A stretch of DNA of 63,038 bases, counting the filler, from Licmophora abbreviata (lineage: Eukaryota), in the NCBI GenBank assembly GCA_900291995.1. It is 11 parts of 11 records of this genome, joined end to end, with 100 filler letters (N's around TTAATTAATTAA, not from the genome) between each part and the next. Parts side by side here need not be neighbours in the genome. Positions count along the whole stretch, not along the records: positions 39,393 to 48,721 come from OLMU01000143.1; positions 48,822 to 51,476 come from OLMU01000144.1; 9 more parts are not named here. One strand, written 5' to 3'. The notes under the pieces are model-generated. The model did no database searches. It had not been told where the DNA came from and saw only the letters and a list, made by a program, of their open reading frames with translations. This document shows, one piece after another, positions 4,563 through 60,000 of this stretch (within the stretch, counting starts at the first letter, position 1; each line of letters begins with the position of its first letter). The position numbers were made by a program, and so were the translations under genes.

Positions 4563-7410
4563 TTATTTTCGTCGTCGCTTTGATTGTGAATGAATGGGTC
4601 TGCCACTGTTGTCATCACCTGTGGACGATGAGCCAGAGCCTCCACTGTGTTGAGAGAAGTGGAAGCGGCCATAGTGATCCATTTCCACCCTTCCTGGCGT
4701 AGCTTGCTGGTGGCGCTCGCGAGGGTGCTCCATCTGATGCCATTCAGCGGCGACGCCGTTTTGCTGCCCCACGAATTCCCGCGCCTTCCGTCGTTGGTCG
4801 GGTGTCATACGATTCTCCATTCCGTAGAGAGACAAGATTTGGTACTGAAAGCAGAGAAATTCGAGATCAGACTGCAAGGAGAAGTCCATTGTCATTGGAT
4901 CACAGTACATGATGTTATGAACGTCAGGGACGTTGCCATCGAATCCGCCATAAGCGAAGGCCGTGCACTCCATAATGCGAAGTACAGCAACGGCATCCTC
5001 CAATTGAACAACGTTGCGGTACAATAGTCGAGCATGAGCTTGAGAAAGTCTAATCATCGACTCCAGGAAGCGAACCGTGACGGGAATGGTAGAGCTCTCG
5101 GCCATACGAACGCGTTCGTAGTGACGCTCTAAAAGAGTCGCCGCGTCGTCGCTCATGGCCGGACTGAAGCGATCTTTGACTAACGCAATGTAGGCACGCA
5201 GTTTTTCCATGCTCCATGGTGTCGTCTCGAGTGGGCTTCCATCCTCCGTCGTGTCGAGCCCAGCTCCCTAAAGAACACATTCGGTCAGACGGTAATGAGA
5301 ATAGCTTGCCAACATCATATGTAAAGAGCTGTGAAAGATTCAACCTGAATTGGCTTACCTGGATAGCTCGATTCAGAAGGTACGTCGTGATGTTTGCATC
5401 GCGTTCTGCGTCCGACGAGTCGACAAGCTTGAAAATAATGTCGAATCGCGAAAGAAGAGGGGTTCCCAGACCAGTGTTGCGAGAAAGGCTGGCATGATTG
5501 TCGTACAGACAGTCACGGGGGTTCATGACTGCAATAATGGTGGCACGGCAGTTCAGCTTGCAGACGATTCCAGCTTTTGCGATCGAAAGTGTCTGCTGCT
5601 CCATGGCTTCGTGGATGGTCGTTCGATCTTGCTCTTGTATGCACCCGAACTCGTCGATACAGCAGACTCCCTTGTCCGCAAGGACGAGAGCACCAGCCTC
5701 CAAAACGAACTCTTTGCCACTGCCCTCCCGAACGGCAGCGCAAGTTAGACCTGCCGAGGTTGTACCGACCCCGGTCGTCAGAACAGAGCGAGGACAAAGC
5801 GTTGCAGCAAAACGTAGAAACTGAGACTTGCCCGTTCCTGGGTCTGTATTTCAAAAGAGGTAAGCAGCGTCGATATAGCAAGGCATTCGAGTACTAAACA
5901 ACGTGACAACTCACCTCCGACGAGCAGCAGGTGCGACTGGTCCCGGCGACGTGTCTGGACCGTCGCTTGTCGATGAGTTTTGCGCAGTTGTGACAGTCCT
6001 CGTGCACCCTCGTAGTTGCAAGTCGACTTGTTATCTACACATCTATTGTTCGCAATGTGGAACGGGACGGGCTCGTCATCGTCGCTATCGTTTCCATCCG
6101 ATGCGGCATGGGATGCTTCGCTTGGTCGTCGTGTGGCTGTATTGTTGGGGTCCTCATTCTCTTGGTGCTGCTGATAGGAGTCGGACGACACACCACCAAT
6201 CAGCGTTATCAGCAATGCCAGCTTGATCATAGACATGCCATACAGCTTGGGACATACAGCCTTGCAAATAAAGTCTCGCGCGGCAATGGGATTCTCCAGA
6301 TGGTGGGGGTCGTTCCAGTAGTCATCAAATTCCAGTCGAAGCTTGTCCATGTCGCCCAGTGCGGTTGTATCCCCACTCTCCCACCCCGAAGCCCCTTTTT
6401 CTTGCAAAACACGAATCGAATGAGCCTTAAGCGCCATTCCAACATTGCAGTCAACTTCTGGAATGCACGCCTGATGCCACTGCGCGAGGAGCGATCCTAC
6501 CAACACAATTTCGTCGCCCGGTTGACATTTCTCGACAAGATCGTGCTGCAGCTTGATGAGTAGCGATCGAGGTATATGACCTACTCCAATGCGAGATGCC
6601 GCTTCTTGAATTTTGATTTCCTGATAGTCCGTATGTACCGAAGCGATATGTTTCAACTTGTTACCTCGACATCGTTCGCTCCCCGACTTGAAAAGAGGAC
6701 ACGAGTCGGGCTTGGCCAGGGCGTTGTGGCGTTGCTCAAGGTCTGCGTACTCGACAAAGGTTTGACCACAGCCATTCTTTCCGGTGCACTCGTAGGTTCG
6801 GGCACTTTCTTACATTTGCACCGGCGAAGCACGTACTACTGTCCCCGACAATTGAACAATCTTACCGACATCACTGGCATCGACCGACGCCAGGGAGGTA
6901 ATACAGCAGGTCGGGGCCAAGTGTACCAGTCGCGCATGCACTCGCGTCATGGGCTGACCACCTTCTCCCTTGTCGCCCTTGACAGTGAGAGAAGCTTCGG
7001 AACGCACGTGGCTTCCTGGTTGCAGTTCCGATCGAATTGTTTGTTGCGCCAGGACAATTGCGTTTTCNNNNNNNNNNNNNNNNNNNNNNNNNNNNNNNNN
7101 NNNNNNNNNNNTTAATTAATTAANNNNNNNNNNNNNNNNNNNNNNNNNNNNNNNNNNNNNNNNNNNNATCGGCGTGCAGCAAGTCGAACATGTTGATTTC
7201 GAGCGGGTAGTCCCGTGTAGTGGAGCTCTGTGCTGCCAACAGGGTCTGCAGGGAGGCCCGGCATGTGTCAGTTCGCAAGAGGTGTCGTAGAAATCGCTGC
7301 TCGACTTCCGTCGGGGGACCAAGGTCCTTGTAGGACGCTCGTTGCAACCGCTCTGCGGACCAGTTGTGTAGGTCTAGTGCAGAATCCGCTTCGTCTAGAT
7401 TCGGTTCCAT
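4563..7410 (-). CDS. MCM9: MCM8/9-family DNA helicase, most like MCM9 (multi-exon, spans assembly gap, in-frame TAA at 6810-6812)
   Basis: [23 protein letters not shown] Walker A split by an intron, [74 protein letters not shown]. Confidence 0.88.
7068..7167. other. Artificial assembly linker (N-TTAATTAATTAA-N, 100 nt). Same at 18324-18423, 21661-21760, 29146-29245, 34927-35026, 39293-39392, 48722-48821, 51477-51576, 55444-55543, 60899-60998
   Basis: Identical 100-nt blocks with stop codons in all six frames. Genes continue across several of them. Confidence 0.97.
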
Positions 7411-39591: not shown

Positions 39592-42500
39592 ATGTCAGAA
39601 GAGAAACCTAACGCGGTTGAGCAGTATTCTGCGAACGAGGAAGTCGGCTATCTTTTCTTGCCGAATTGTTCCGTCAGGGTGCTTGACCACGATGACGACT
39701 GGAGTATTCCCAAAGGAAAGTGGACGAATGTCGAATTTCCCTCTCGATGTGATCTGAACACAGCATCAGACGAAAAGCGAGCCGCGGGCCCTCCAGGAAT
39801 GTGCAGTCGCTGCGATCTCGTTCTTACTGCAGATCTGTCGCAAGAGACGAATCGGTCTGGACTCAAGCTTCGGATCGCCGAGGCACCATACTTTGACGGG
39901 ACGCTCTCGGATAGATGTTTTGATCATGAAATGTGCTCGATGCAATGTCGGCGAGAAAGCGATCGCTCTGATGCAGCGCTCTTGGTGGGACTTGCTTTTT
40001 CATGCCAGTCGCACGAGCATATTTCCATTCAGAGCATCCAAGTCATGTGCAAAGAACCCGCCATCGACGAAGCCAAATGTAAAGTTGCACCGCTTAAAAC
40101 CTCTGGCTTGGGTGATCGAATAGAGTCATCACAACCAGAAGCACCCATATTGGCCTCTTTGGTAATAACATTCGCCATGCCTCAGCTCACTGCGGGCGAT
40201 GCGGGTGCTGCACATCGTAGGTCCATCACTAAAGTTGTTGCAAAGGGAGGCTCGCGGAAACGCTCAGTTCCGAGGGTGCTACCTTCTTGTACCCAACTAC
40301 TCCTTTCGGTGCTACGAAGCGACTGGAGCTTCTTAGAGCATGAAATGGAGAGGCTCGAGGGTAACTTCACGGCCGAGCCCGAGATGATCAATCAGCTTGA
40401 ATACGATGGAACATTGGTGAAGGCGCTTTGTCATTTCTTTCCACCAAAGCTCAATCTCGAAGAGGTTCGTCATCGTCGGATGAACAAATGTTGGCGAGCA
40501 ACTATTGTGAAGTGAACTCACCACCCCGCTGTCTGTTCTCGTTTTCGCAGCTCTACCATCGTATCAGAAGCGCATCCAAGACATCTCTGCACCCCCTGAA
40601 GGATCATGTTGACTGCCCACTGCGCATCATCCCCGAAGACATGCTTACGGATTGCGTCGCACCATTTCTCAGGGCTCGAAGTTTAGATGCGCTTCGCTGC
40701 TCTTGTACTTATCTCCATCGCGTCCTTAGGACGATTGTGCCCGGGATGAAGCTGCGTCTTTACGAACACCAAGTGCGTTCGCTTGAATGGATGAGGAAAC
40801 GAGAGACTCACGAGTATACAGAGCAGGAGATCTTGCGATCGAGGGCGACTGACAGTATCAGCTTTGGCGGAGATCTACATCGCGCAGTGACTGGAGGGGC
40901 GACAGCGTGTCTCAGACCTCGGGCGTCTGCTGACGGGGTAGTGTTCCGCGTGAACCAGCATGACGGTCGAGAATGTAGCTACGGGAATAGCAGCAGCGGC
41001 ATCGATTTTGCTCTCTCACGACGCGTCGCGCGAGGTGGGCTCTTATGCGATGACCCAGGTCTAGGGAAAACGATCACTGTTCTGTCGCTGATCCTCCAAA
41101 CACACGGGTTGGGCACAACGAGAGCGTCCGTCTCTTCTGAACCGACCATTTCTCCTGAGATTAAAAAGAAACGAAATCTCAACAAGATCTTTGAAGCATA
41201 TTGGAGAGAGCACGTACCTTATCCGTACAAGCGACAACTTTTGATCAAGTTACTCCAAGGAGTTCGCAAGGCCGATCCATCATCTTACTTCTTTGATCGT
41301 GATGTCGACCCCGTACTCTTTCGCTGCCCGGACTATTATGAAGTAATCAAATGCCCGATGTCTTTTCAACGAATCACTGACACGATCAACAAAGAAGATG
41401 TCTATATGACTGACTTCGAACGCTTCCGCGTTGACATGGAGCTCTGCTTTCGGTGAGAACGCTATTTGGCTCGACGTGCTACTTACAACACATGCTCTTC
41501 TAACTGCAATCTGCTTACACTTTCTCCCATGATCTAGAAACGCAATGGTGTACAATCAGCCGGGAAATATTGTCTACGAGGCTGCTGCGCGGTTGAAGGT
41601 AGTATTCGATAGTGCTGTGAACTCGTTCACAGAGGAGCAGGTTCAGTCGGCTATGAAGAGTTTCTCTAGCTCCACGTCCAAGCCAAATAGTTCGGTCGCT
41701 GCCATAATCGAAACGACAAGAGAAGGCGAGCTCAGAGACTCGTTGACACCGTCTGCGGGTACCCTTCTCGTGGTGCCAAAGACGCTCTTAAATCATTGGG
41801 AGGTACGCTTGTTTCTACATGGTGTAGCATGATATCGTTCCTTCACCACCCACAATGATATCACGGTGTGTTTGTTTATCCTCTGGTACTTCTTAAGGAT
41901 CAAATTGCACTGCATTTGGATCCAGCATTTTGCACACAAAAAGTGCCCGTTGTGTTTCCATACACAGAGAGGCTTGCGAAGAATAGAGCTGACTTGAGCC
42001 ACATGTTCCAGAAGTTCACGGTTGCGAAGACACACTGTCCTCTGGTATTTATCGATAAGGCAGGCATCCAGCCCCTTCCCCCCTCCGATTTTCTGGCCTT
42101 GTTTCACGTTGTCATTACCACGAACCATCGTTTCTCACACGAATGGAGAAGAGGCAGTTTCGAGGATGAGTTGAAGCAGAGCGGCGCTGATGATGGTGCT
42201 GCAGGCATTTCCGACGAAGCTCGGATATCCCAATATCGCTCTGCAACTGCGTGTCCTCTCCTGCGCGTCGAGTGGCTACGATTGATCGTCGACGAAGGCC
42301 GTAAGTTCAATGTTGCACGTGACTGCTTACATGCGGTTTGGCTGACCACGTTGAACTGACTCCGTTGTTCGGTTGTGTCTCTCCGACATAGATTCGATGG
42401 GAAGGGGGTCGCTTAACAGCTCCATTCTCTTTGCTTCGTGGATCTCAGCCCAGCGTCGATGGGCGATGACCGGAACGCCCACACCACAGACAGTCTCCCA

Positions 42501-44277
42501 TTCGGGATTAAAGAACGTGTTAGGTCTTCTGCAGTTCATACAGCACGACTTTTTCTCGAGACGTCTTGACGGCGTCACCATATGGCAAAATAGTGTGAGT
42601 CGATGCTGGAGCGATGGCGATTTGGCTGCCTTCTTCCGCTTGCAGTCACTACTGTCCTTGCTGATGGTACGGCATACCAAGTTGGATATCAAGGAGCTGC
42701 CCCCACCGATATTTACGAAGACTTTTCTTTCACTGAGCAAGGAGGAAAGCATTGCTTACAATAACTTGGCTACTGGCATACGTTCAAACATTTTGTTGAC
42801 GTCTATGAAAGGGAAAACATCTGGTCATCAGGACTCCCTTCTCAATCCGACCCAAGGCAGACACGCAAAAGAGGCCTTCCGCAATATTCGCTTGGCCTGC
42901 TGCGGTGGCACTCGCGTAATTCCTTCACTCCAGGACCGGTTCTGGGCAGAGACGATCGACATGCTTCAAGAGTTCGGTGTTGAAACCTACAAGATTCGGG
43001 TTGTTGAGAATTATCTGCATCGTGCAGTTACCGAGCAACTCTCGGGGTGCATGCGCTGTGGACTACAGCTGAGTACACTTATCATTGTGCCTTGTGGCGA
43101 TCTTATATGCTCGGAGTGCATGGACAGCTCGACAAGAGCTTGTCCCATTTGCCAAAAGCCGTTTATTGTCGATCAAATTCAGCGTCTCCAGCCAGGGTTT
43201 GTTCACGAGTGGGTTCACAGCCTCGAAGAAAAGGAGCAGCGGAAATACGACTTGCATTTGCAGGAGCAAAATCGTCTCCGTGTGGCAGGGAGAAACGAGG
43301 AAGAAAGTAGCGAAGATGATGCCGAGTCGCAAGTAATCATGGCCGGTGTCGACCGTGCTGGACATGTTCCCTTACAACCAGCTAGGCTGCACAGGAGAAC
43401 GCGCCTTTGGGGAGATGGACACGTTTGTCAGTACGACCCAGCGTCAACAGAAGGGAATTGCATCCTTTGTTTGAACTCGCACATGACCAAGGTCGGTTGC
43501 GCATTTGACGAAAAAACAATGAGGTGTACCGTTTGCTACAAGACGGCGGAAGACTGTCCACAATCGGAAACGAAGTTCCGCTATCTGACAGAGAAGCTTG
43601 TGGGGCTGCGTGCGGAGCGAGCCAAGAATTTCGCCTTTGATCAGGGCGACAGGCCGCTTAAAGCGATTGTCTTCTCTCAATATCGGAGAGTGTTGAACCT
43701 CGTTGGCGATCGCTTGAACCGCCGCTTCGGAGTGGCCTGTATCGCTGAATTCTTCGGTTCTTCTCGCCAGGAAGAGTTGTCGAAATTCACGCAGGATACG
43801 CGTTGCTTCTGTATGCTTCTTACCAAGGATGGGGCAGAGGGGCTCGACCTTAGCTTTGTAACGCATATATTCTTCGTTGAAGAAGTGTGGGACAGGTCGC
43901 TCGAGAACCAGGCAATTGCTCGTGCATGGAGATTGGGATCAAAAGGAAGAGTCGAAGTAGAAACCTTGGTCGCTCGTGACGGCATTGAAGAAACTCTGGC
44001 AGAGCTCGCAATGGGAAAACAGAAAGTCCTAGAGGACGATGCGGACATATCGATTCCATCATCCCTGTCGAAACCGTCGAAGAATAGGCAGGAACGCGCC
44101 AAGCTGGTGTACGTGCTCAAGAGCATTCGCCCCCTCAAAGGTCGTTGGTTTATTGGAAATGCTTCACGAATGGCAAAGAGAACCAGAAACCGAGACGACG
44201 TAACGCTGTCGCTACAGAACGGGGACGAGGGTACTGAGCGTAGACCGAAGGCGTCCCGTGTCCGCTTTCAGATATAG
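39592..44277 (+). CDS. F-box + SNF2 ATPase + inserted bromodomain + RING + helicase-C protein (5 exons)
   Basis: F-box-like IIPEDMLTDCVAPFL..SL..LRCSC, LYEHQ, GGLLCDDPGLGKT, TLLVVP, WLRLIVDEG|H, RWAMTGTP, C..C...PCGDLIC.EC...CPIC, KAIVFSQY, GAEGLDL, QAIARAWRLG. Confidence 0.9.
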
Positions 44278-44359: not shown

Positions 44360-46049
44360 TTAATATTCTACAATAGAGCTCAAGGTCGTCTCGTTGAGAT
44401 CGTCCCAGTCCATTTTTCTTATTTTGCCAACCAGGCGCGACATTCGTTCCATGGCGATTTCTAACACCTCAGGAGATACCCAAGCGTAACAGATACGAAA
44501 CATGCCTGGTGTGCGCTCCCGTTGACTCTCGCCAGGCGTCAACACAATACGAGCATGGTTCACCATGAGATCGCTCAGTCTGGCCTCTCCTTCAAAACTC
44601 TTGGCAGGGAGGAGCGACGAAAAGTCCACGTAGATGAAGATTCCCGCCTCTGCTGGTATAAAGGGGATGACCATTTCTTCCAGTTTAGAGACACAAACAT
44701 TGTAGCCCGTCCTCAATCGGGTTCTGGCGGTATCCAAGAAAGCATCAACCCACGGGTCGTCTGTAAGCATCTCAGCGACTGCCATCTGAATCGGGTTGCT
44801 AACACCACTAAAGATACTCAGATTTCCGAGCGCCTCCAGGAACTCTTGGTTCTGCGAATAAATCAAACCAACTCGGAAGCCACTGGCACCGAAATCCTTC
44901 GACAAGGCCCACAGCATGTGGACGTCATTGCCGAGATCGTTTTCAAGGACACGGACAACCGACTTGAAGCCGTGGTCTTGCTGCTGTTGGTATGGCAAAG
45001 GGGTTGTGAGCGCGAAGCGAGAGGTTTGAGATGAGACTAAGAGCAGAGAGAAGCTCTATCTCTCAAAAGACATACCTGGTGGGTTGAAAGAGCATAGATC
45101 TCGTCGACAACTGTGTGCAAGCTGCGCTTGCGAGCCCATCGGACTGCTCCTTCAATTACTCCGGGTCGATAGATAGTACCAAGAGGATTGTTGGGATTAC
45201 ACAGTAAGAGAAATTTGACTTTGAATCCTTGCTGCAAATTGAGCCGACGAACAAAGGAACGTGAGCTCTACTATGCGCACACGCTTTCAGCCGCTGAACG
45301 CCTTATGACACCCTTACCGAGGAGGCCTGAAGATAGGCCATATCTAGCTCGTTCTCAGTGGGCCCCATCGCTGCATTTGCCATATAGCAAGGAAACGGTT
45401 TGATGCCTGCCATGACGTTCATATCATTTTCAAAGGCAGCGTAGTATGGAGCAGGAATAATACATGCTTCCCTTTCTTCTCCAAGAATAAAAAAGAGATA
45501 GTTCAACAGAGCTGCGCACCCAGACCCGATCGCCACATTTTCCATCTTGACATGCTGCAGTGCTTGCTGGGGAGTAATCGAAAGAGCTTCAGGAAACAGA
45601 AAGTGTCTTGCGAGAAAATAGGCCGCCGCCTGTCTTGCCATAGGCAAGCCAAGAAACGAGTTATACCCATAGACTGTCGGATCAGAGAAGGCAGCCGATG
45701 CTGTTTCAGGGTCAGTCAATCGTTCCGCGATGAGATCAGTCACGAGCTTATTTTCGGCAACGCAAAGAGCAATGTGCCCTCCTGGATTTTCCCGAGGATG
45801 ACAAGGATCTTGTAGACACTTGAAGAAGCTCGAAATGTAAGGAATAGGAGGAGACAAGGCTGCGACGCCACGTGTACCAATGGCCAAGTGATCACCGTCG
45901 CGTTGGATATGACTTCTTCGCCCCTCCGGGTTTGCTCTGGCACCCAACAACGCGTCTTTTCTCTTCTGACGCCGTCGGAACCATGAAGCAGTGACAATGA
46001 ACAATGCAGCCGCCACGCTGGGGGAGAAAACGTCCTGATCGTCGGACAT
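44360..46049 (-). CDS. ACC-synthase-like PLP-dependent class I/II aminotransferase (3 exons)
   Basis: IALCVAENKL, PAPYYAAF, LCNPNNPLG, VVDEIYALS, WALSKDFGASGFRVG (PLP lysine), PGMFRICYA. Confidence 0.88.
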
Positions 46050-46477
46050 GGTGGACACAGGATGAACGACGCGTCGCGATCTTTGATTTTGGAACACGAA
46101 TTTTTAATTTTTCATACCTATCCCAAGAAACACTTTGCTTTCATAAGGATTTGCACACTGTACAAATATACGTAATTTCTTTCGTATAATTCCAATTTGG
46201 AATCGTAAGGATAATGGGCGCGCAATACTTATACGGAACTGAAGAAAATATAGGGTACCCGCCGGAGATACGATCCTTTTTCTTCTCCTGTGACGCGCTG
46301 TGATGAGAACTCTGTAATCAACATCCCGCCGCCGTCTCCCGACGCCGTCTCTGCGTCTCTGCTGATGGTCTCTGGGCAGACCTTTCGATCCGTCAGCTTA
46401 GTTTCGGGCATGCCATGAGAGCAAAGTGAACATTGGCATCGACTTCTGGAAGTAGGTTTTTCGAGGAGCTGGATAAT

Positions 46478-49400
46478 ATGTCTGGAAGACTTTCGAACCT
46501 GATTTCAACAAGATTGAATTTGACCCCTCAGGAAGACAATATAACTTCCAGCGTCGCTTCGCGGCGTCATTCTGTAGGACCTGATGATGAGGAGGAAAGC
46601 AGAGAGGAAATCCCGGCGTCTAACGGCGCACAGTGGGGTGGTCAAGGCAAAATCATGGTGAGAATAGAGATGTACTATTACCTTTTCCATTTCCCAACTA
46701 CTTCCTGAATCTCAATTGGCGTGACCAACTCCCTACTGTGTCGAACCACCCGGGAAAGGCTCTCCCACGAACCAAAGCAGGGAGCACGAAAGAATTGCTA
46801 AGGATGGATCGCTTTAAGACGCGCCTCAGACGTGGGTCGACACTAGCGCAACAGGTCACAATCCCTTACAGGCGAGGACGTAGACACGACGCTCTTTTGT
46901 CTCGGCAGGTCCAGTCGACCCACTCCTACGCAAAATTGATGCTGAACACCTTTGTCGTTTACTTTATAGCGGTGACAATGTCTACCCTTGTTCTCCAGGT
47001 GTTTAACATTTATCAGGATAAGGTCACGGACGAGCAATGTATTATCGGCTATGAGTATGAATCGACGTTCAGTAAGTCATATCGACGACCATGTGATCTC
47101 CCCACTTCATCATCGCGTCTGCGCTAAGCACCTGCCCACAACACGTCACGCAGATATACACAACTTTAGTATAGTCTTCGAGCTATCATGGACAACATTC
47201 TCTACCGTCGTAAGTCATTTTCCTTGACCTCAGTACTTTGTCTGTGTTGTCGTTGCGGATGCCGACTTGTCTGACATATCTACGCCTTGTGTTGCAGGGC
47301 TACGGAGCGACAGCGCTCACGCCCGCGGTGAGTCACTAAACTACTCTTTGTATATTCCGGTGATTGGCTTTAGCAATGTGGCCTCTGACAGTGCCATGCC
47401 CGTTTGCTTGCTTCAGTCGGCGTGCAGGGCATTGAGAACTCTCCTTTGTATCCAAGCATTCTTAGGAGTCATATATGCAGGCTTTTGTGCTGCAATCCTG
47501 TTTTCGAAGATATCGAGACTCCTCTCATACGCCCAGGTGACCTTTGCAAGTTCAATTTGCCTTCCGTTTGGTGAGAATGTGCCATCCTTGGGACCTATGA
47601 AGGGCGAGATCGTGAGTTCAAGACTGGTGTCGGGACATGAGCTCGATCATCCTTTCGTACACTGACGGTGTGTTTTAATTCCAGGGCGATTCGGCAATGG
47701 GCAACAAAACCTCGACCCCAGAGAAAGCCCACTTCCCGATTCTTCAGATGCGGGTCGTCAATGATGTATGTTTCAGTGATACGCTGCAGTGGATTGCGGC
47801 AGAAAGTATTTGGAACACTCACGACGATCGGACACACCTTTCCGTTTAACCGCAGAGGTCTCGTTTGGGAGGGAATATCATCAATGCTAGGATGAATTGC
47901 GTCGCTGTTAAAGTGACAGGCGCTCATTCTGGTGACGAAAGCGAAATTGAGGATAATCTCGTTCGTGTTGAAGGTGTCGGCGAATCAGAAGTGAAACCAT
48001 CGCAGAAGGAAAGAATCTACGAAGAGGTCGTCGTGGCTCCTGACACATATCCGTTCTTTGATCAAGGTGTCTGGTACTTTCACCATGTCCTAGACGCGCA
48101 GTCACCGCTTCTTGCTGATTCTGTTCGCGAGCGTATTGCAAGGGACAATGCATGGCCGACCGACCTCAACCAGCATGATAGCATTCGCGCGTGCCTTTCC
48201 GACGAAGTTGAAGAAATCGTGAGTTCGTTTTGCCAACGGGTATGGCATGATGCACGTTGCGTCAATTCTTACAAAACAGGGGAACCCACTGCCATAATCA
48301 TCTGATTTCGAATTCTCACAGGCAGTTTCCATTCAAGGCACATCGGACTTGACGGCAGACGAGGTGTACAGAACACAGGCTTACGTTCTGGATGATATTT
48401 TTGTTGGATGGAAGTTTGTCAACTTGAATTTTATACCCGATAATGGAGAGAAGCATCCCTCGGAGGCTCAGGATGATTTATCTTTGGTCAATGACATTGT
48501 AGAACAAGAGGGAGGTGGGAGTGAACCGATCGACTTGTCGACTCAAAACAGCCGTGGACGGGGACACTACTTTCGCCGTTCTGCCGAATTGTCAGAGCCT
48601 ATGAGTTTTCGTTTGCGCCGATGGCGGAGTGTCAGCACAAGAGTGCGGGGTTGGTTATGCTGTAGGATTACACGCGAGAAAATGCGACAATATCGAATTT
48701 CCATGCGGACGGACAGGATTTNNNNNNNNNNNNNNNNNNNNNNNNNNNNNNNNNNNNNNNNNNNNTTAATTAATTAANNNNNNNNNNNNNNNNNNNNNNN
48801 NNNNNNNNNNNNNNNNNNNNNTGCGACAATATCGAATTTCCATGCGGACGGACAGGATTTCGTTCAGAGTTGAATCTGGCTTCAGTCGCATCGAAGCCAT
48901 TGTTGTTCGGTGGACACTCTGGCATCACAGAACAACATTCCTCCGCTCAATCCTTGGGTCTCTCGCTCTGTACCTCGTTTTCACTTTGTTATTTGGTCTT
49001 TTCGTTGTTTCGGTCTCAAGGATAACTGAACTTGCAAGCGGGGTCGTGTGCGTTCCAAGTTGGGTGGACACAAGGGACGCCATCTCTCAGTTTTATATCG
49101 CATATGAGGTCTCCTGGACAACTTTCAGTACCGTCGTAAGTAGGTCTTGCCAGTACAAATGGGGTGTTAAGTCTCCACATTCGCTCAATTCAACTCTGTC
49201 ACGGTGCATGTAGGGGTGAGTCGTATCACACCAGAGGGCTGCATTGCATCGAGGTCGAATGCACTCATTGCGCAGTCTTTTGTTTTGCAACAGCTACGGA
49301 GTGGTTAGCCCAAGTATTGAGGAGGAGTGCGGCGGCCTGACATTCCTTCTTGCAGTTGAGGCTTTCGTAGGGGTATTATACACTGGTTTCTGTGGTGCAA

Positions 49401-50499
49401 TTATTTACGCCAAGCTAATGCGCGTACAGCGAAACGCCGACGTTACATTCTCAAGAGCTGTTTGTCTGCAGTACGGCATGGGGCTGAATTGTGCGAGGCT
49501 CAGAACGTTGCAAACAACACATGTAAGTTCTCCTTACTCTCCCAAGCATGCCAAAACGCCCAATGTGTTACAGCCCGACCAACTTCCGGTTCTTTTCCCC
49601 AACTGACAGAAAACTTCATCTCAGACACAGCACCAAGATATAACGTTCCCAGTTGTTGAGATGAGGGTAGTCCACAATGTAAGGCTATCATCCACCGCAC
49701 CATTGAATCTTTTTCCCTCGTTCTAACCCCTTGTCCGTTCTAGGAGTTAAACACAAGAGGGATCTACATCGATGACGCATCCATTAGCTGTGTGCTGACA
49801 AGCTTCCGCTACGTAAAGCGGGACGCACAGAAACGAACGCCGAGCGGAGCCAAGTCCCGGGATGAACTGCAGTATGAAGGAAGCGTTCTAGAAGCCGTTC
49901 GAACGGTCCAGAACCTGCAAGTGACTCCGGATAAGATGCGCCCATACTTTGCGCAAGGGCCATGGTCGTTCTTCCATGTCCTTGATGGCGATTCGCCGCT
50001 GCTCACATCAGACACGCGGAAGCGAATTCAAGAATGCGGCATTTGGCCGTCGGATATCGACAGCCCTGACGACATCCGGGCGACTTTATCACCCCATGTG
50101 CGGGAGTTGGTGCGTGTTCCCCTCATTTCTTGCACGAGCTGTTTATTTCGTCGACTGACAAGCTTACAGGTCGTTATGTTTAAAGGTACCTCGAACCTGA
50201 AGGCTGGTGTTGTCTTCAAGATCCATGTGTATAAGCCCGAGGTAAGTTTCGTATTGCTATACCCGTCATTCTCTGTTGCTTGCTGTTCAGTCCAAAAACT
50301 AAAACGCTGTTGCCGTTCCGAAAAAAATTAGGATCTATGTATAGGATGGAGATTCGCAGAGCTTTCGTGGAAGCCAAAGAAGAAAGGAGAATTTGCGGAC
50401 GATCGGCAGTCGAAAGGGATTGGAGGGGGTATCAAGTATGATTTATCTCTTGTCCATGACGTGGTTCCACAAAAGGGAGGGAATCACGAACCACTGTGA
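46478..50499 (+). CDS. Tandem two-unit inward-rectifier (Kir-like) K+ channel, many exons, spans a zero-length gap
   Basis: Two copies of M1 - Cys - SWTTFSTV|GYG - Cys - M2 - VTF - FP...MRVV - W.F.HVLD..SPLL - GTS - D...GW.F - DLSLV.D.V.Q.GG..EP. The 5' exon structure is uncertain. Confidence 0.8.
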
Positions 50500-50576: not shown

Positions 50577-52036
50577 CTACTGTGGCATCGCCAGCCCGTT
50601 GATAGATACCAACGTGATGTCGTATTGCAATGTCGCGTCCGGGGGTATTCCTCTACGCGGAACGCCTTTCGAGCCATACGCCAAGACAGGTGGAATGATC
50701 AAGCGCCGTCGCTCCCCCTGAAGAAACACCCAGAAGCGTGAGAGATATCCAGTCGAACATCACAAGCTTGCAACACACTCTCTGGACACGAGCGTAGACA
50801 CACTCACCACACACATTCCTTCGACTCCCGCGTCCCATCCGGGGGGAAACTGCCCGAAGGGCTGTTTTCCGAGTACAAAGAACAAGGAGACGTCGTTGCC
50901 CCGGCCAGGAATGCCTTGTCCATTGATCTTGATGGCCGACCCGTCAAAAACTGCACCCGTCTCAACGATCGTCCCCAGATATGATATTTCAAGCAAGTCG
51001 TCCGTTGTCGCACCGCGATTGCACATCTTGGGAGGAAGCAGCTGAGAAACGGTCAATTTCTGGTCGACCTGAGCAGATACAGCCCGGCCGGCCTTGACTG
51101 AGCCGTCGGCGTTTCGTTGTGTTGTGTCACCAGCAGGAGCGACCTGCGTCGTAACTTCTCCCGTCGATGACAAATCAGAAAGTCGTTCTTGAAAGACAGA
51201 AGGATCGCGAAAGCGCAGATCAATGGATCCTCCCTCTGGGGTGGACTTGACGGCTTGCAGAACTAGGATACCAACTCCCTCAGGATTGGTACGCTCGGCG
51301 CTCTTACCGTTGACGCTCACAACGACCCAGCCTTTCTGAATTCCTAATTTGGAAGCAGCCGAGCCCGGTGCGACAGACTTGACAAAGACACGAATGTTTG
51401 TTCGAAAGTCGACTTGCCCAAGCTCGATGCCAAGTCCTCCTCGGGATAGTTCAGACTTGGGTATCGATACCGTGAGNNNNNNNNNNNNNNNNNNNNNNNN
51501 NNNNNNNNNNNNNNNNNNNNTTAATTAATTAANNNNNNNNNNNNNNNNNNNNNNNNNNNNNNNNNNNNNNNNNNNNCAGACTTGGGTATCGATACCGTGA
51601 GCTCATCTGAAGCCGCAGTCTGTGACTGTGGAAGTGTCTTCCCTGTAGGCGATATCGACGTTGATGACGGAGAGTGAAGTCCTCGATAGGCAGAGTCTAC
51701 TGCAGTATTGGCGAAAGAGTCCGTTTCGTCCGTCACTGCGGCATGGGCAGCGGACACCTTCGCCAATCCAAAAAATGAGCCCACCCCTGAGAACCAGGCT
51801 CGCCTGTCATACAAGGAAACATCATTTACTCGACTCAAATCGTCTTCCGAATCGGTAACTTCAAGCGCGTTTTGATGTAACCTCCTGCGTAAAAAACATT
51901 GATCATGCGCAGAACGACGACACGCACCATCATGCTGACGCGTTCCTATTCCAGTAAACGCCTTGCAACCGATCAATCTCCCCACAGCTATCGAAAAGAC
52001 AATGAGACATAGAAATCCAGATGACCATGGCATCAT
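50577..52036 (-). CDS. Thylakoid-lumen-type PDZ + FKBP peptidyl-prolyl isomerase (spans zero-length gap; intron ~50718-50808)
   Basis: Signal + CKAF, RR..AHA motif, GLGIELG...VFVKSVAPGSAA...VSVNG (PDZ), ISYLG...VFD...FVLG...GWD.GVEGMCV|GERRRLIIPPVLAYG..G.....IPPDATLQYDI. Confidence 0.88.
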
Positions 52037-52423
52037 AATTTAGAAATTTTCAAAGTCTCTGCGCTCCGGTATGATCATTGATGTGACACCTGATGACAGC
52101 TGGCCCCGACGACAGAGATCTTTGTGACCATCGCCATCATCATCGTCTCGTCTCTCGTCGTCGTCATCTGTTTTGTCGCTCGTCTTCGACTCACTCGACT
52201 CAACTGAAACTGACTCGAGTCACGATTCTTTCATTCCCGTCTAAATCTAACCGTCGCCCGGCACGCTCGATGTTAATCGGAGGTCGGTAGCGGCGATGCG
52301 ACCATGCTATAATTGCGGACCTACAGCCATCAGCCATTGTAATCATTACGACGGAGCTTTTCTCACTGTTGTTCGCCCTGTAATCGGAGAGAAAAGAAGT
52401 CATAGAGGTAAACTGCTTGCGCA

Positions 52424-54012
52424 ATGAGAGTGAGTCATCTTGCGAGACTCTTGCTGATTCTCGGTATGCAAGTGACCCTCCGGCATGCGTTCAGTATCAC
52501 GACTTTTCGTCGGCATGCACTTCAAACGAATCTCCTTCGATACATGACCCAGAGCATAGATTCAGTGGATTCGGTCTCGGGACAGCAGGATATCTTTGAC
52601 GGAGACGGCGAGACCACATCATCGTCGTTACGACGACACGCCAACAAGAAGAAAGCGTCACCACAGCCCCCTCCTCCGTTGCCACATCCATCGGAGTTTC
52701 CTGATTGGGCATACGAGCCTCGTTCTTTCTTCAAATTTGAGATATTGCACGAGTCAACCAAGAGCGGTGCACGAGTTGGAAGAATACACACCCCACATGG
52801 GACAATCGATACACCCGGATTTGTCGCCGTGGCAACGAACGCAGCCCTGAAGGCGGTAGACTTTCGAGAGGCGGATGAAGCGGGGCAGCAACTTATATTT
52901 GCCAATACGTATCATCTACTCCTGCAACCTGGGTCTGAGTTAATCCGCGATGCTGGGGGGATTCATAACTTTACAGGTAGACAGAAGCCTTTCATCACCG
53001 ACTCAGGCGGCTTTCAAGTTTTCTCATTGGCGTATGGGAGTGTTCACGAGGAACTGAGTTCTGGGGGAGAACTGAAACGAGCCAAAGCTGGAAGCAAGAG
53101 CACATGGAGACAAGATGTAATGGGAAAAGACGCTGTCAAAGTTTCAGAAGACGGTGCAACGTTTCGCTCCTATCGGGATGGCGCTCGGTTTCTGCTAACG
53201 CCTGAAACAACAGTGCAGGCCCAGAAGGATATCGGTGCCGACATTATCATACCGCTGGATGAACTTCCTCCCTATCACGTGGATCGTCAAGTGCTGTCGG
53301 ATTCTGTCGATCGGTATGTTATTTACACTGTGCTATATTGCCGTATGCATCTGCCTGCACGCGAATACACCGTTTGCTTACATTGTGTGGTGCGCCCTCT
53401 CGATCTCATCTGTTCAGCACGCATCGATGGGAAGCTCGTAGCTTGAAAGAACATCTCAAGAGCGTACAGAATCAAGCCATGTTTGCCGTCATTCATGGTG
53501 GTATTGACGTGGAATTTCGGACGAGAAGTATTGACTATCTGACGTCGTTGCCGTTTGATGGATACGCGATTGGTGGCTCTCTGGGGAATGGGCGCCAGGA
53601 ACTGAAAGAACTGCTGGCCTGGATGATGCCACTCTTCGACCAGGGAGGCCGAAAGGGGAAGCCGAGACATCTCTTGGGCATCGCCGACGAGGAAAGCATT
53701 CGAAACGCCGTGATGCGTGGGATCGATACTCTAGATTCATGCTATCCGACGCGATTGGGTCGACACGGGACTTTGTTGACTCGCAGCGGAACGTTGAAAA
53801 TTAAGAGTGGGAAATACGCCCGATCGTTTGGAGAAAAGATCGATGAACAGTGCACGTGTTCGACTTGTCGGCACTACGATCGCGCTTACTTGCGACACTT
53901 GTTCAAGGCCAACGAGCCCGTCGCTATTTCCCTCGCCACACTGCACAACATTCACTACATGAGTGACCTGATGGCCGAGATTCGACAGGGTATTCTAAAT
54001 GATGAAATATAG
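52424..54012 (+). CDS. tgt: Queuine tRNA-ribosyltransferase, chlamydial-type, with presequence (intron ~53314-53417)
   Basis: ARVGRIHTPHGTIDTP, ANTYHL, TDSGGFQVFSL, ADIIIPLDE, IHGG, IGGSLG, PRHLLG, CTCSTC...HN zinc site. Confidence 0.93.
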
Positions 54013-56692: not shown

Positions 56693-57082
56693 ATCGCAAG
56701 AATTATATTGGTTATAGCCCGGGCATTGATGCCGTACCAGTAATGTATTTTTAAGAGACTTACAGCTTTTTTGCAAAGCCGCCCGGGACTGCCGATATCG
56801 TTCGTCCGTCGAGCGCTGGACAGAAATTGGAGAATACAACATCACACATCACGCGATCGCGACGCGACGCGACGCATTATTAGTCTGCCTGGTACTCTCC
56901 ATTTCATCCGCGACGACGATGAAAAGCAGTAAACAAGTGGAGCCCATGTGACTGTCTGTGGTTTGATAAGGAGAGACGAACACTGTGCGAAAAAGTAGCG
57001 AAGAAAAGGAAAGACCAAATTCAGAAGTTGTAGTTTGGCGCGCTGAACTCGGTATTGTATTATCTTCCAGGTCTTAGCTGCA

Positions 57083-60000
57083 ATGCAGGCCCCCGCCAGC
57101 TCGACTTCGTCAGAGTCAACAACGCCGCCTTCGACGAGATCGATGAACTCAGTGGGCACAACAACGTCGGTGGGATCATCGTCATCGACTTCCTCGCCGA
57201 GGATATCTGATCGGAAAGATTCACCTGCCGAGCCAGTTTTGTCGGTCGCCAAAACACTTGCACGGCTTCAATCCATCCCGACGAATCGCTCTTGTGCAGA
57301 CTGCCGTTTGCCATTGGTTGACTTGTCACAGACGTTTGTCTCCTTCTCACCGCATCCTGGAAGTGCTAGACACGATGAAACTGGCGAAAACTGTCCAACC
57401 CTTGGCTCATTCCAGTTCAATCATGAGGCGTTTGCGCCAACGCCATCTCTCCGTCGGGCTCAACACGAGCATACTGTGGATCCAGCAATTCTTGTGACAG
57501 AACAGCTTGGCGGTCACGGTGTTTTTATATGCTCACAATGTGCGCAGGCGCATAAGTCAATGGCACCAAGAATAACGCTGGTGCGATCAGTCAAGAATCC
57601 ATCTTCTTGGGAGCCCGAGGACGTTCAGTTCCTTGCTGGTGCGGGAGGAAATGCACGATCCTGGGCAGTCTTAGAAGGATTCATGCCAGAATCCTGGCAG
57701 AAACGTCGTCCAAGTCATACCAGTACAGTGGCACAACGTCAGGTATTTGCGCGAGCCAAGTACGACGCGCTCGCATTCGTATTGCCTCCAGGAGGGCCCT
57801 TGGCGCCACGGGCATGGAGAAACATTGTGACGGGAAGACCAGCGCTTGGTCGGTGGCGAACGGAGGATCTGATGAGCTTCCAGCGAACAGCGTTGAGTGA
57901 CGGGCGCTCCAACAGTCTACGCAATCTTGCCAGCACTGGCGAAGAAGCTGCGCCAGAGCGCTTAGTAGATTTCTTCTGTGTCATTAGTCACACCGGAATG
58001 CTCGAACGAGGCCAGGCGAATTGCGATCTGTCTGAAATATCTTCGCCGGAGGAATTGCGCTTAGAGACGGCAGTGATTGATTGCTATCCTGCGGTGGACG
58101 AGTACAGCGACATGGAATACCCCGAGCACGTTTCGAAATTCGTCTTTCCAGAAGGATGCAGCCCTTCAGAACAGCAGAAGAGCCCGTCTCTTTTCACTTT
58201 TGTTCTCACATCGTCCAACGGCCAGCGCCTATATGGCGCCGCTCTCAATGTATTTGACGAAACTATTGACACTGAGACATTCCGCAGTATCTTGAAAGAC
58301 TCGGGCTACGAGATGAAACTCCCGTGGTGGCTCGAGGACTCGGCTCCGCGTGAACACCAGAAAGATAAGAAGGCACCATCCGACGTCATGTTCATGCCAA
58401 AGTGTCTCGTAGTTTTGTCGCACTATCCCTTTTTTGACCTTTGGCGACGATTTCTTCGACAAATCTATCGAATCACGTTGGTGGAAGCACCGCTGCCGAT
58501 TGAGAGATACGTGGCGAACTTTGTAAGTGAAGTACCTCTTCCACCACAGGGGAGAATCGAGGTGCGATTTGCCTTCACAAACGACGAAATGTGGACGGTG
58601 AGACGTCCCCCTGTCAACAAGTTGCCAATGGTCAACTTCTCTTATCGCCCTTTGTTTGCCTCGTTGAGTGTTGGCAACGTCATGGTAGCGATGGGCGCTC
58701 TAATGGAAGAAACGAGGGTGGTCTTGTTATCTAAACACTACTCACTCATGACACCAGTCGCAGAGGCACTTTTGAGTCTCCTGTTTCCCTTCGAATGGCA
58801 GGGTATGTACATTCCTATCATGCCATATTCCATGCTGGATATCCTGGATGCCCCTGTCCCGTACCTTGTCGGCCTAAATTCTCGCTATCTTGCCAACGTC
58901 AAACCGAAATATCGGCCGAGAGACGTCGTCTATGTGGATCTTGACAGGGACACGATTCACTTGGGGTTCAACGAAGATGGAGATGAAATCCTCCCACCAA
59001 ACCTTCCTGAACGAGAGGCCGCCAAACTTAGCGCAAAGCTTCAAGAAAGTGGTGGCGTTGTGTACCTCGTACCAGACAACGGTGTCAAAGGAAGAATTAT
59101 GGTTGGCGATGGGAAGCTCCTTGTCAACTCAAGACGCCCTTCATACGCGCAAATGACTCACGAGGACGCTTCGAATAAGGTATCGCTGAGGTCTAGCACG
59201 CTCGCAAAGACAGAGAATGCTTTTCTCAGCAACAAACCAATCAAAGGTTTCTTCTCCGAACAGGGGCAACTGGCCGAACGCGACGTTCGGGGTGCGAACA
59301 AAAGTCCAGAGAAAACTAGAGCAAGGGCTCTATTCCAGCTAGGTCGCAAAAGTTCGAGAGCTGAGTCCAACGATGATTCTTCCCATTCTCCTGCTCACGC
59401 CAATCTCCTAGATATCTACGGGTCGAACGGGTTCTCAGCTCATGAGATTCGGAACGCTTTCCTTCGCTTTTTTACGACGATCTTCAATCAGTACGAACGA
59501 TACCTTTCTAGCACTTCGGACACAGATCTTTTTTTGAGGGAAGAGTTCCTTGCAAGTGTGACCGGATCGACGTCGACGAACTTCCTGTCGAGAATAACGA
59601 GCACACAGATGTTCCAAGCTTTTCTGGAGGAAAGGAAGCGTAACCCGAACGACCCCGAACTTCTTTTCTTTGATGAGTCGATTACCGCAAAGAACAACAG
59701 ATCACGAAGGACAACCCTTACAACTGGAGGGAAGAGAGAGACCCCGTTTCTAGACGACAACTCCGGAAGGGTGAGGAATTCGCTTGCGTGTACCATGTCG
59801 AAGTAGGTGACTGTTTCGCCTGCTAATCGTCGTCCTTTCTTCACAGGTCACCGAAACGTTCACACCGCCGCCTCCATCCAACTGGGGCTTGCCTGATGAT
59901 GGGAACGGATACCAATACAGCAGCTTCCCGAAACTTGACCAAACGATGTTCGGCAAAGTTCGACCGGCCAAACAGTGGCCTCAGAAGGTTGTCATTCATC

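Follow-up and report, generated by a model that had tools for sequence, protein, structure and literature searches.

Can two nucleotides serve as an exon, and can such an exon complete the filter of a membrane channel? This question is raised by a predicted gene at 46804..50499 (+) in a stretch of DNA from the diatom Licmophora abbreviata (NCBI GenBank assembly GCA_900291995.1). We analyzed the whole stretch, 63,038 bases made up of 11 contigs joined end to end and referred to here as the window, in which this gene encodes two Kir-like channel units of ~424 and ~428 amino acids in a single reading frame, with stop-free exon models. In the second unit the coding sequence is interrupted just where the T-V-G-Y-G filter should be read, and the two bases that would complete the filter lie between what would be the acceptor of one short intron and the donor of the next. 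Based on the anatomy of this junction and on its relatives, we consider it likely that these two bases, GG at 49214..49215 (+), are an exon; this prediction is the best-supported reading of the unit-2 junction.

The filter junction of the second unit

How is the junction built? The pore exon of unit 2 ends ..TTC AGT ACC GTC, with ACC GTC (Thr-Val) at 49130-49135 and GTAAGT from 49136, and the next coding block, CTACGGA, starts at 49294, directly after a CAG at 49291-49293. Joining 49135 directly to 49294 yields TV-LRSG-stop, that is, a stop after 4 codons. Between these two ends lies TAG/GG/GTGAGT (49211-49221), in which TAG occupies 49211-49213, GG occupies 49214-49215, and GTGAGT occupies 49216-49221. 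When GG is included, the junction reads TVGYGVVSP (TVGYGVVSPSIEEEC), and the frame stays open to 49522. The predicted arrangement has three parts, all on the + strand: intron A (49136..49213; 78 nucleotides, GTAAGT...TAG), which would fall in phase 0 between Val and Gly; the exon GG, which would provide the first two bases of GGC, the Gly codon with which the G-Y-G filter opens; and intron B (49216..49293; 78 nucleotides, GTGAGT...CAG), which would fall in phase 2 within that Gly codon. GG alone returns the junction to frame and also supplies the invariant Gly.

An earlier account of this DNA, referred to below as the original prediction, had placed the unit-2 junction at these coordinates and had claimed that direct splicing causes a frameshift and a stop and that inclusion of GG restores G-Y-G; the sequence bears out each of these points. 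It equally bears out the claim that the T-V boundary of unit 1 likewise holds an intron, followed by a 30-nucleotide exon at 47298-47327. The paralogous region of unit 1 (47210..47416, +) consists of an 88-nucleotide intron at TV/G, this exon, and an 89-nucleotide intron; TV/GTAAGT falls at 47209/47210, the exon encodes GYGATALTPA, and the following GTGAGT begins at 47328. Short filter exons are accordingly seen twice in the channel gene, once as the 30-nucleotide exon of unit 1 and once as the predicted 2-nucleotide exon of unit 2.

Could the arrangement of acceptor, GG, and donor be a coincidence? The decamer AGGGGTRAGT occurs a single time on both strands of the window, at the site of the predicted exon, against an expectation of 0.15 from whole-window shuffles, at least one match being present in 15 of 100 shuffles. 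A sharper answer comes from shuffling the inside of the 158-nucleotide interval 200,000 times, with both resulting sub-introns required to be at least 50 nucleotides long: the frequency was 22.1% for AG-NN-GT, 1.67% for AG-GG-GT, and 0.0135% for AG-GG-GTRAGT. Such an arrangement is statistically unlikely to be coincidental. The GG site also divides the 158-nucleotide gap into 78 + 78 nucleotides, and the other ten introns of the gene measure 60-103 nucleotides; the channel gene has 12 introns when the 2-nucleotide exon is counted, all of them short. Two features expected of a sub-codon exon are seen here: a canonical AG and a canonical GT that each form part of a full intron of workable length, and a pair of bases without which the frame fails and a conserved residue is lost.

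How strongly is that residue conserved? When unit 2 was used as a read-through query, the two intron stops being replaced by X, 383 proteins were matched at E values of 1e-3 or below (best match, 45% identity, E 6.4e-26), and 32 of these were used for a family profile, A1. The filter Gly (G218 in the numbering of family protein P0001) is invariant in all 32 sequences of the A1 alignment. The pore-helix motif SWxTxxT is present in 113 of the 150 best representatives and is followed by x-G-[YF]-G in 108 of these 113. The remaining five (P0009, P0049, P0077, P0112, and P0141) read V-V/S.. at this point, which corresponds to the GTN that opens an intron left unspliced directly after TV, and four of the five re-enter the frame at ..Q/K-GYG after 25-33 residues. 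As an observation in its own right, these five public diatom channel predictions have the TV/GYG intron translated and carry either 25-33 spurious residues in the pore loop or a truncation.

These same sequences speak to the age of the intron position, for which the original prediction had proposed a comparison with orthologues. At 2 of 80 related metagenome loci the filter reads TV/GTGAGT..93 nucleotides..TAG/GGC TAT GGT, and at the other 78 TV-GYG is contiguous. Because an intron is found there in unit 1, in 5 of 150 family proteins, and in 2 of 80 loci, TV/GYG looks ancestral, an old intron position of the family that unit 1 and intron A of unit 2 would have in common.

Does unit 2 still need a working filter? 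It keeps 27 of 30 family-conserved residues (12/14 invariant and 15/16 near-invariant columns), and its other exons are all open; unit 1 keeps 14/14 invariant and 11/16 near-invariant columns. Judged by these columns and open exons, unit 2 is under constraint and is not decaying. The unit-2 frame has survived divergence of the two units to 33% identity, which argues that a working junction is needed.

Splice sites, rival readings, and a proposed route of splicing

To compare the predicted exon with other ways of joining the flanking exons, we enumerated the in-frame, stop-free GT/GC-AG models of the junction, 198 in number, of which 71 have a single intron and 127 have an internal exon of 1-12 nucleotides. 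The 2-nucleotide exon model came first of the 198 on the summed splice-site position weight matrix (PWM) score (25.5; runner-up, 20.4), from a matrix built from only ten introns of the same gene, and first as well on the family hidden Markov model (HMM) at 365.9 bits (unit 1, 370.7 bits), where the gain is built into the restoration of GYG and tells which product fits the family, not where the RNA is cut. Taken site by site, the intron A donor scores 11.1, within the top 0.11% of the 3,656 GT sites of the window, and the intron B donor at 49216 scores 7.4, within the top 1.3% (leave-one-out range, 4.2-10.0). The intron B acceptor scores 4.6, within the top 8.6% of AG sites, and has a CTCAT motif 26 nucleotides upstream.

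Besides the two limits on the scores just given, several other features weigh against the predicted exon. The intron A acceptor is weak: it is a TAG without a pyrimidine tract, and its PWM score of 2.5 lies within the top 20% of the 3,846 AG sites of the window (leave-one-out range, -0.8 to 7.6). No YTNAY branch motif was found 8-45 nucleotides upstream of it; the motif is also missing in 1 of the other 10 introns (50242-50331), and the intron at 47072-47153 has only TTCAT, at 44 nucleotides. The outer pair, GTAAGT at 49136 and CAG at 49293 with its CTCAT, makes a competent single intron of 158 nucleotides, and skipping of the 2-nucleotide exon could therefore be frequent. Neither intron B nor the 2-nucleotide exon was found at any of the 80 related metagenome loci, in a comparison that reached distant paralogues and homologues only (the closest at ~45-61% identity, with no closer orthologue found). 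Finally, contigs from four sequencing runs, none recorded as RNA, cover the locus as nine short pieces that are DNA-like and unspliced, with no splice joints; in the one run suspected to be RNA, a contig continues unspliced through the introns at 49523-49624 and 49679-49743, and 49120-49277 is covered by no contig of the four runs.

Given a weak acceptor inside a competent outer pair, is it possible that the exon is real and yet optional? In this explanation, inclusion of GG would be regulated as a putative switch, and skipping would shift the frame and turn off the second pore or, via nonsense-mediated decay, the whole tandem channel. Both the weak intron A acceptor and the outer GTAAGT...CAG pair would ease skipping, and the skipped product ends in the premature stop described above. 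In contrast, the majority of plant coding microexons show inclusion in over half of transcripts (PMC8831610), and a frameshift in the fused gene destroys nothing of unit 1, which leaves the logic of such a switch unclear. We regard regulated skipping as unlikely.

Alternatively, there may be no microexon at all but a single intron of 158 nucleotides (49136-49293), two bases having been lost either in assembly or through a recent deletion that killed unit 2 or the fused gene. Several observations fit this proposal: the outer GTAAGT, CTCAT, and CAG suffice for an intron, relatives have ..AG/GGC TAY GG as the ancestral state, the window derives from low-depth metagenome contigs (depths, 1-3.4), and 49120-49277 is without independent cover. 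If two bases had simply been lost, however, the mid-intron AG/GG/GTGAGT, so rare among the shuffles and the sole such decamer in the window, would have to be coincidence, and a 158-nucleotide intron would exceed the longest of the other ten by 55 nucleotides. The open exons and conserved columns of unit 2 likewise argue against a gene killed by deletion. One contig (49278-49479) reads CAG/CTACGG with no GG inserted, although it may share a source sample with the window, and its independence is uncertain. The original prediction had named an assembly deletion as a way in which it could fail; that case is weakened by this contig to the extent that the contig is independent. Overall, we find a loss of two bases quite unlikely.

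A third proposal, absent from the original prediction, extends the exon by 8 nucleotides to 49143 (GTCGTAAGTAG-CTACGG) and joins a GTCTTG donor at 49144 to the CAG at 49293 to give T-V-V-S-S-Y-G; it is in frame, stop-free, and GT-AG and is the top single-intron model on the family HMM (351.4 bits), but we consider it very improbable given that its donor scores -3.0 (63% of the GT dinucleotides in the window score equally well or better), its summed splice score is 1.5 versus 25.5 for the 2-nucleotide exon model, a perfect GTAAGT competes 8 nucleotides upstream, an insertion before [YF]G is seen in 0 of the 108 family proteins whose pore motif is intact, and it loses the first Gly, leaving unit 2 with a noncanonical and probably nonselective or nonconducting pore loop.

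Returning to the predicted 2-nucleotide exon, how could so small an exon be spliced? We posit that in the functional mRNA the two 78-nucleotide introns (49136-49213 and 49216-49293) would be removed separately and GG kept as an internal exon, which together with the C at 49294 would form GGC, the first Gly of the unit-2 T-V-G-Y-G filter. Each intron would be recognized by intron definition, and the two would be removed sequentially, in a recursive-like manner, because a 2-nucleotide exon cannot hold acceptor and donor complexes simultaneously. Removal of intron A first would leave ..GTC GG/GTGAGT, and removal of intron B first would leave ..TGTAG/GGCTAC; a usable site would be present either way. 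The original prediction had offered a microexon or recursive splicing as the explanation. The GG exon holds up as the best of the 198 models; the site is not a recursive splice site of the zero-length kind, as GG separates the AG from the GT and its two bases must be retained for the frame. A fold of the RNA at 49126-49303 was no better than those of shuffled sequences (z, -0.13), 88 of 200 shuffles folding at least as well.

How might such an exon have arisen? We propose that intron A would occupy the old Val/Gly position and that intron B would have been gained later, 2 nucleotides downstream, isolating GG between them. Based on the comparison with relatives, intron B is probably a lineage-specific gain. 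Two candidate sources of intron B are not supported. One is tandem duplication: an alignment score as high as that of introns A and B arises in 41 of 1,000 shuffles, and this score is inflated by the GT..AGT and AG ends that the two share. The other is an introner-type origin: a search of the window for further copies of the 12 introns turned up only chance matches of 11-21 nucleotides. When 49214-49293 was aligned locally to the exon on either side, to intron A, and to the unit-1 region, every alignment scored at or below the mean of the shuffles. We can also speculate about a combined history in which a diatom-lineage two-pore Kir fusion was followed by an intron gain that left a 2-nucleotide filter exon, the regulated inclusion of which would decide between a working dimer-of-dimers channel and a truncated or degraded product; as a whole, this chain of events seems to us improbable.

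What would follow from such an exon? If confirmed by RNA, it would be the first sub-codon exon described in a diatom, within the literature searched, in which we found no description of diatom microexons or of 2-nucleotide exons. If the proposed history is true, it would also be a clear case of a microexon created by intron gain beside an older intron. At a practical level, gene callers will frameshift or truncate the channel. With regard to the channel itself, the setting of the exon is of greater interest, as it lies in the second unit of an apparent fused tandem channel of the Kir type.

The tandem channel gene and its neighbors

What kind of channel is this? Because the A1 profile matches only Kir channels in the PDB, the family to which the protein belongs is, judged by these profile matches, a divergent, diatom-borne branch of the Kir/KirBac superfamily. 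All 45 of the PDB sequences matched by A1 are Kir sequences; KirBac3.1 is matched at E 2.3e-15, with alignments that take in the membrane part (45-150) as well as the C-terminal part (188-298), the latter at 31.4 bits, and Kir2.2 is matched at E 6.7e-12 over the membrane region. Signals from single models or single exons are fainter. Pfam IRK_C stays below its cutoff in all 16 representatives (best score, 22.4; cutoff, 22.5), Pfam IRK is above its cutoff in 1 of the 16, and the window read-through alone matches Pfam IRK at E 5; none of eight single exons from the window matched a Pfam family at E values of 0.01 or below. The exon at 49294-49522, searched alone against the PDB, gave five matches, all to Kir2.2 in the region of the second transmembrane helix (TM2) and in the right register (E 0.17-1.1), and the C-terminal exon of the window gave five weak matches, none of them to Kir. 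The only named sources of the family are diatoms, and the channel has named relatives in Fragilaria crotonensis, Grammatophora, Odontella, Entomoneis, and Pseudo-nitzschia. In the papers searched, we found no electrophysiology for any member of the diatom family. No product of the channel gene was found in the protein databases, whether exon A was compared with longer proteins or exon B with proteins of similar length, and a search of metagenome DNA with exon B matched 384 pattern stretches with no relative among them.

Do the two units truly belong to one gene? The contigs of the window are joined by linkers of the form N44-TTAATTAATTAA-N44, which begin at 7068, 18324, 21661, 29146, 34927, 39293, 48722, 51477, 55444, and 60899. 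Unit 1 lies on the contig ending at 48721, and unit 2 lies on the contig beginning at 48822. Matching contig ends are found at only 2 of the 10 junctions, with an overlap of 39 nucleotides at 48722-48821 and of 25 nucleotides at 51477-51576, and because their ends overlap, the contigs of unit 1, unit 2, and the next genes are truly adjacent. The eight other junctions have no overlapping ends, and the neighbors there need not adjoin in the genome. The 39-nucleotide overlap is exact and in frame across the contigs of the two units. The unit-2 exon that ends at 49135 begins at 48322 and spans this junction; its part on the second contig (48822..49135, +) encodes an N-terminal QYRI motif, the first transmembrane helix, and the pore helix (..EVSWTTFSTV) and ends in phase 0 on ACC GTC, the family consensus for the region being LSWTTFSTVGYG. 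The exon that follows the filter junction (49294..49522, +) opens C TAC GGA, and its product runs from (G)YGVVSPSIEEEC through TM2 into the beginning of the cytoplasmic domain. Farther downstream, as a side observation, tandem acceptors, CAG ACA CAG, are present at 49622-49630 (+), 6 nucleotides apart and in the same frame; use of the second would shorten the unit-2 linker by two residues (TQ) ahead of ..HQDITFPVVEMRVV.

The ends of the two units suggest how the fusion is put together. Unit 2 ends ..GGNHEPL-stop, the point at which family proteins such as P0009 also terminate. Unit 1 runs past its own ..GGGSEPI for ~25 codons and directly into MSFRLRRW.. (region 48500-48900), a stretch that looks like a former unit-2 start and resembles the start of unit 1, MDRFKTRLRR. 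Translation of the fused gene as one chain is inferred from the open frame only. An architecture with two pore motifs was found in none of the 150 best family representatives, and a second pore motif was found at none of the 80 related metagenome loci; a tandem, "two-pore" subunit of the Kir type may be new. Of the two unusual features of this locus, the tandem Kir fusion is less expected than the 2-nucleotide exon.

The neighboring open reading frames belong to ordinary eukaryotic genes. They were assigned to an SNF2/RING helicase (40401-44274, +), a class I/II aminotransferase (44363-46103, -), a PDZ-FKBP protein (50763-51476, -), a queuine tRNA-ribosyltransferase (52412-53443, +), and an ArfGAP-DENN protein (57047-59803, +). 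The best named relatives of the queuine tRNA-ribosyltransferase are from diatoms only, e.g., Entomoneis, Fragilaria, Bacillariaceae metagenome-assembled genomes, Nitzschia, Cylindrotheca, Thalassiosira, and Skeletonema. Other sites of the form YAG-N(1-6)-GTRAGT lie at 42591 (+), 55185 (-), and 25785 (-), for a total of four on both strands of the window, which is too few to judge whether tiny exons are a habit of this genome.

Comparison with known systems

How does this locus compare with systems already described? As a channel, it resembles Kir and KirBac proteins (KirBac3.1, Kir2.2, Kir3.2, and Kir6.2) in having two transmembrane helices, a pore helix, a T-x-G-Y-G filter, and a predicted Kir-type cytoplasmic domain. 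It is unlike the known members in that the diatom family is very divergent, with weak matches to Pfam models, and in that two units are fused here.

As a splicing arrangement, it may be compared with the recursive splice sites, or "ratchet points," of long introns in Drosophila and vertebrates, where an acceptor lies almost directly before a donor (AG/GTRAGT-like) and the intron is removed in two steps. Splicing through a classic ratchet point either keeps no bases or drops a recursive exon, within introns that span tens of kilobases. The diatom site is similar in that its acceptor almost abuts its donor and the interval would be removed in two steps. In contrast to ratchet points, it would have to keep 2 nucleotides (GG), and both of its introns are only 78 nucleotides long.

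Sub-codon exons as such are already established in plants: in APC11 and VPS55, exons of 1 nucleotide have been validated by RNA-seq and reverse transcription-PCR, and their conservation extends across land plants (Yu et al. 2022, Nat Commun 13:820, PMC8831610). These exons have conserved GTRAGT donors, and sequential removal of the flanking introns has been proposed, one intron being detained and spliced later (PMC8831610). The predicted diatom exon is likewise an internal sub-codon coding exon between two canonical introns that keeps the frame and is missed by annotation; it likewise has a strong GTRAGT donor right after it, and its introns would likewise be removed stepwise, the exon being too small. 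It differs in being 2 nucleotides long, in being predicted from sequence alone, and in having a conserved counterpart in 0 of the 80 loci compared.

The tandem architecture, finally, invites comparison with K2P channels and yeast TOK1 (PMC2234077). These channels have two pore units per polypeptide, and the fused diatom protein would share this feature, with two chains rather than four making up a channel. The units of K2P channels and TOK1 are not of the Kir type and are without a Kir cytoplasmic domain; in the diatom gene, in contrast, each unit is predicted to be a complete Kir-like subunit with a cytoplasmic domain of its own.

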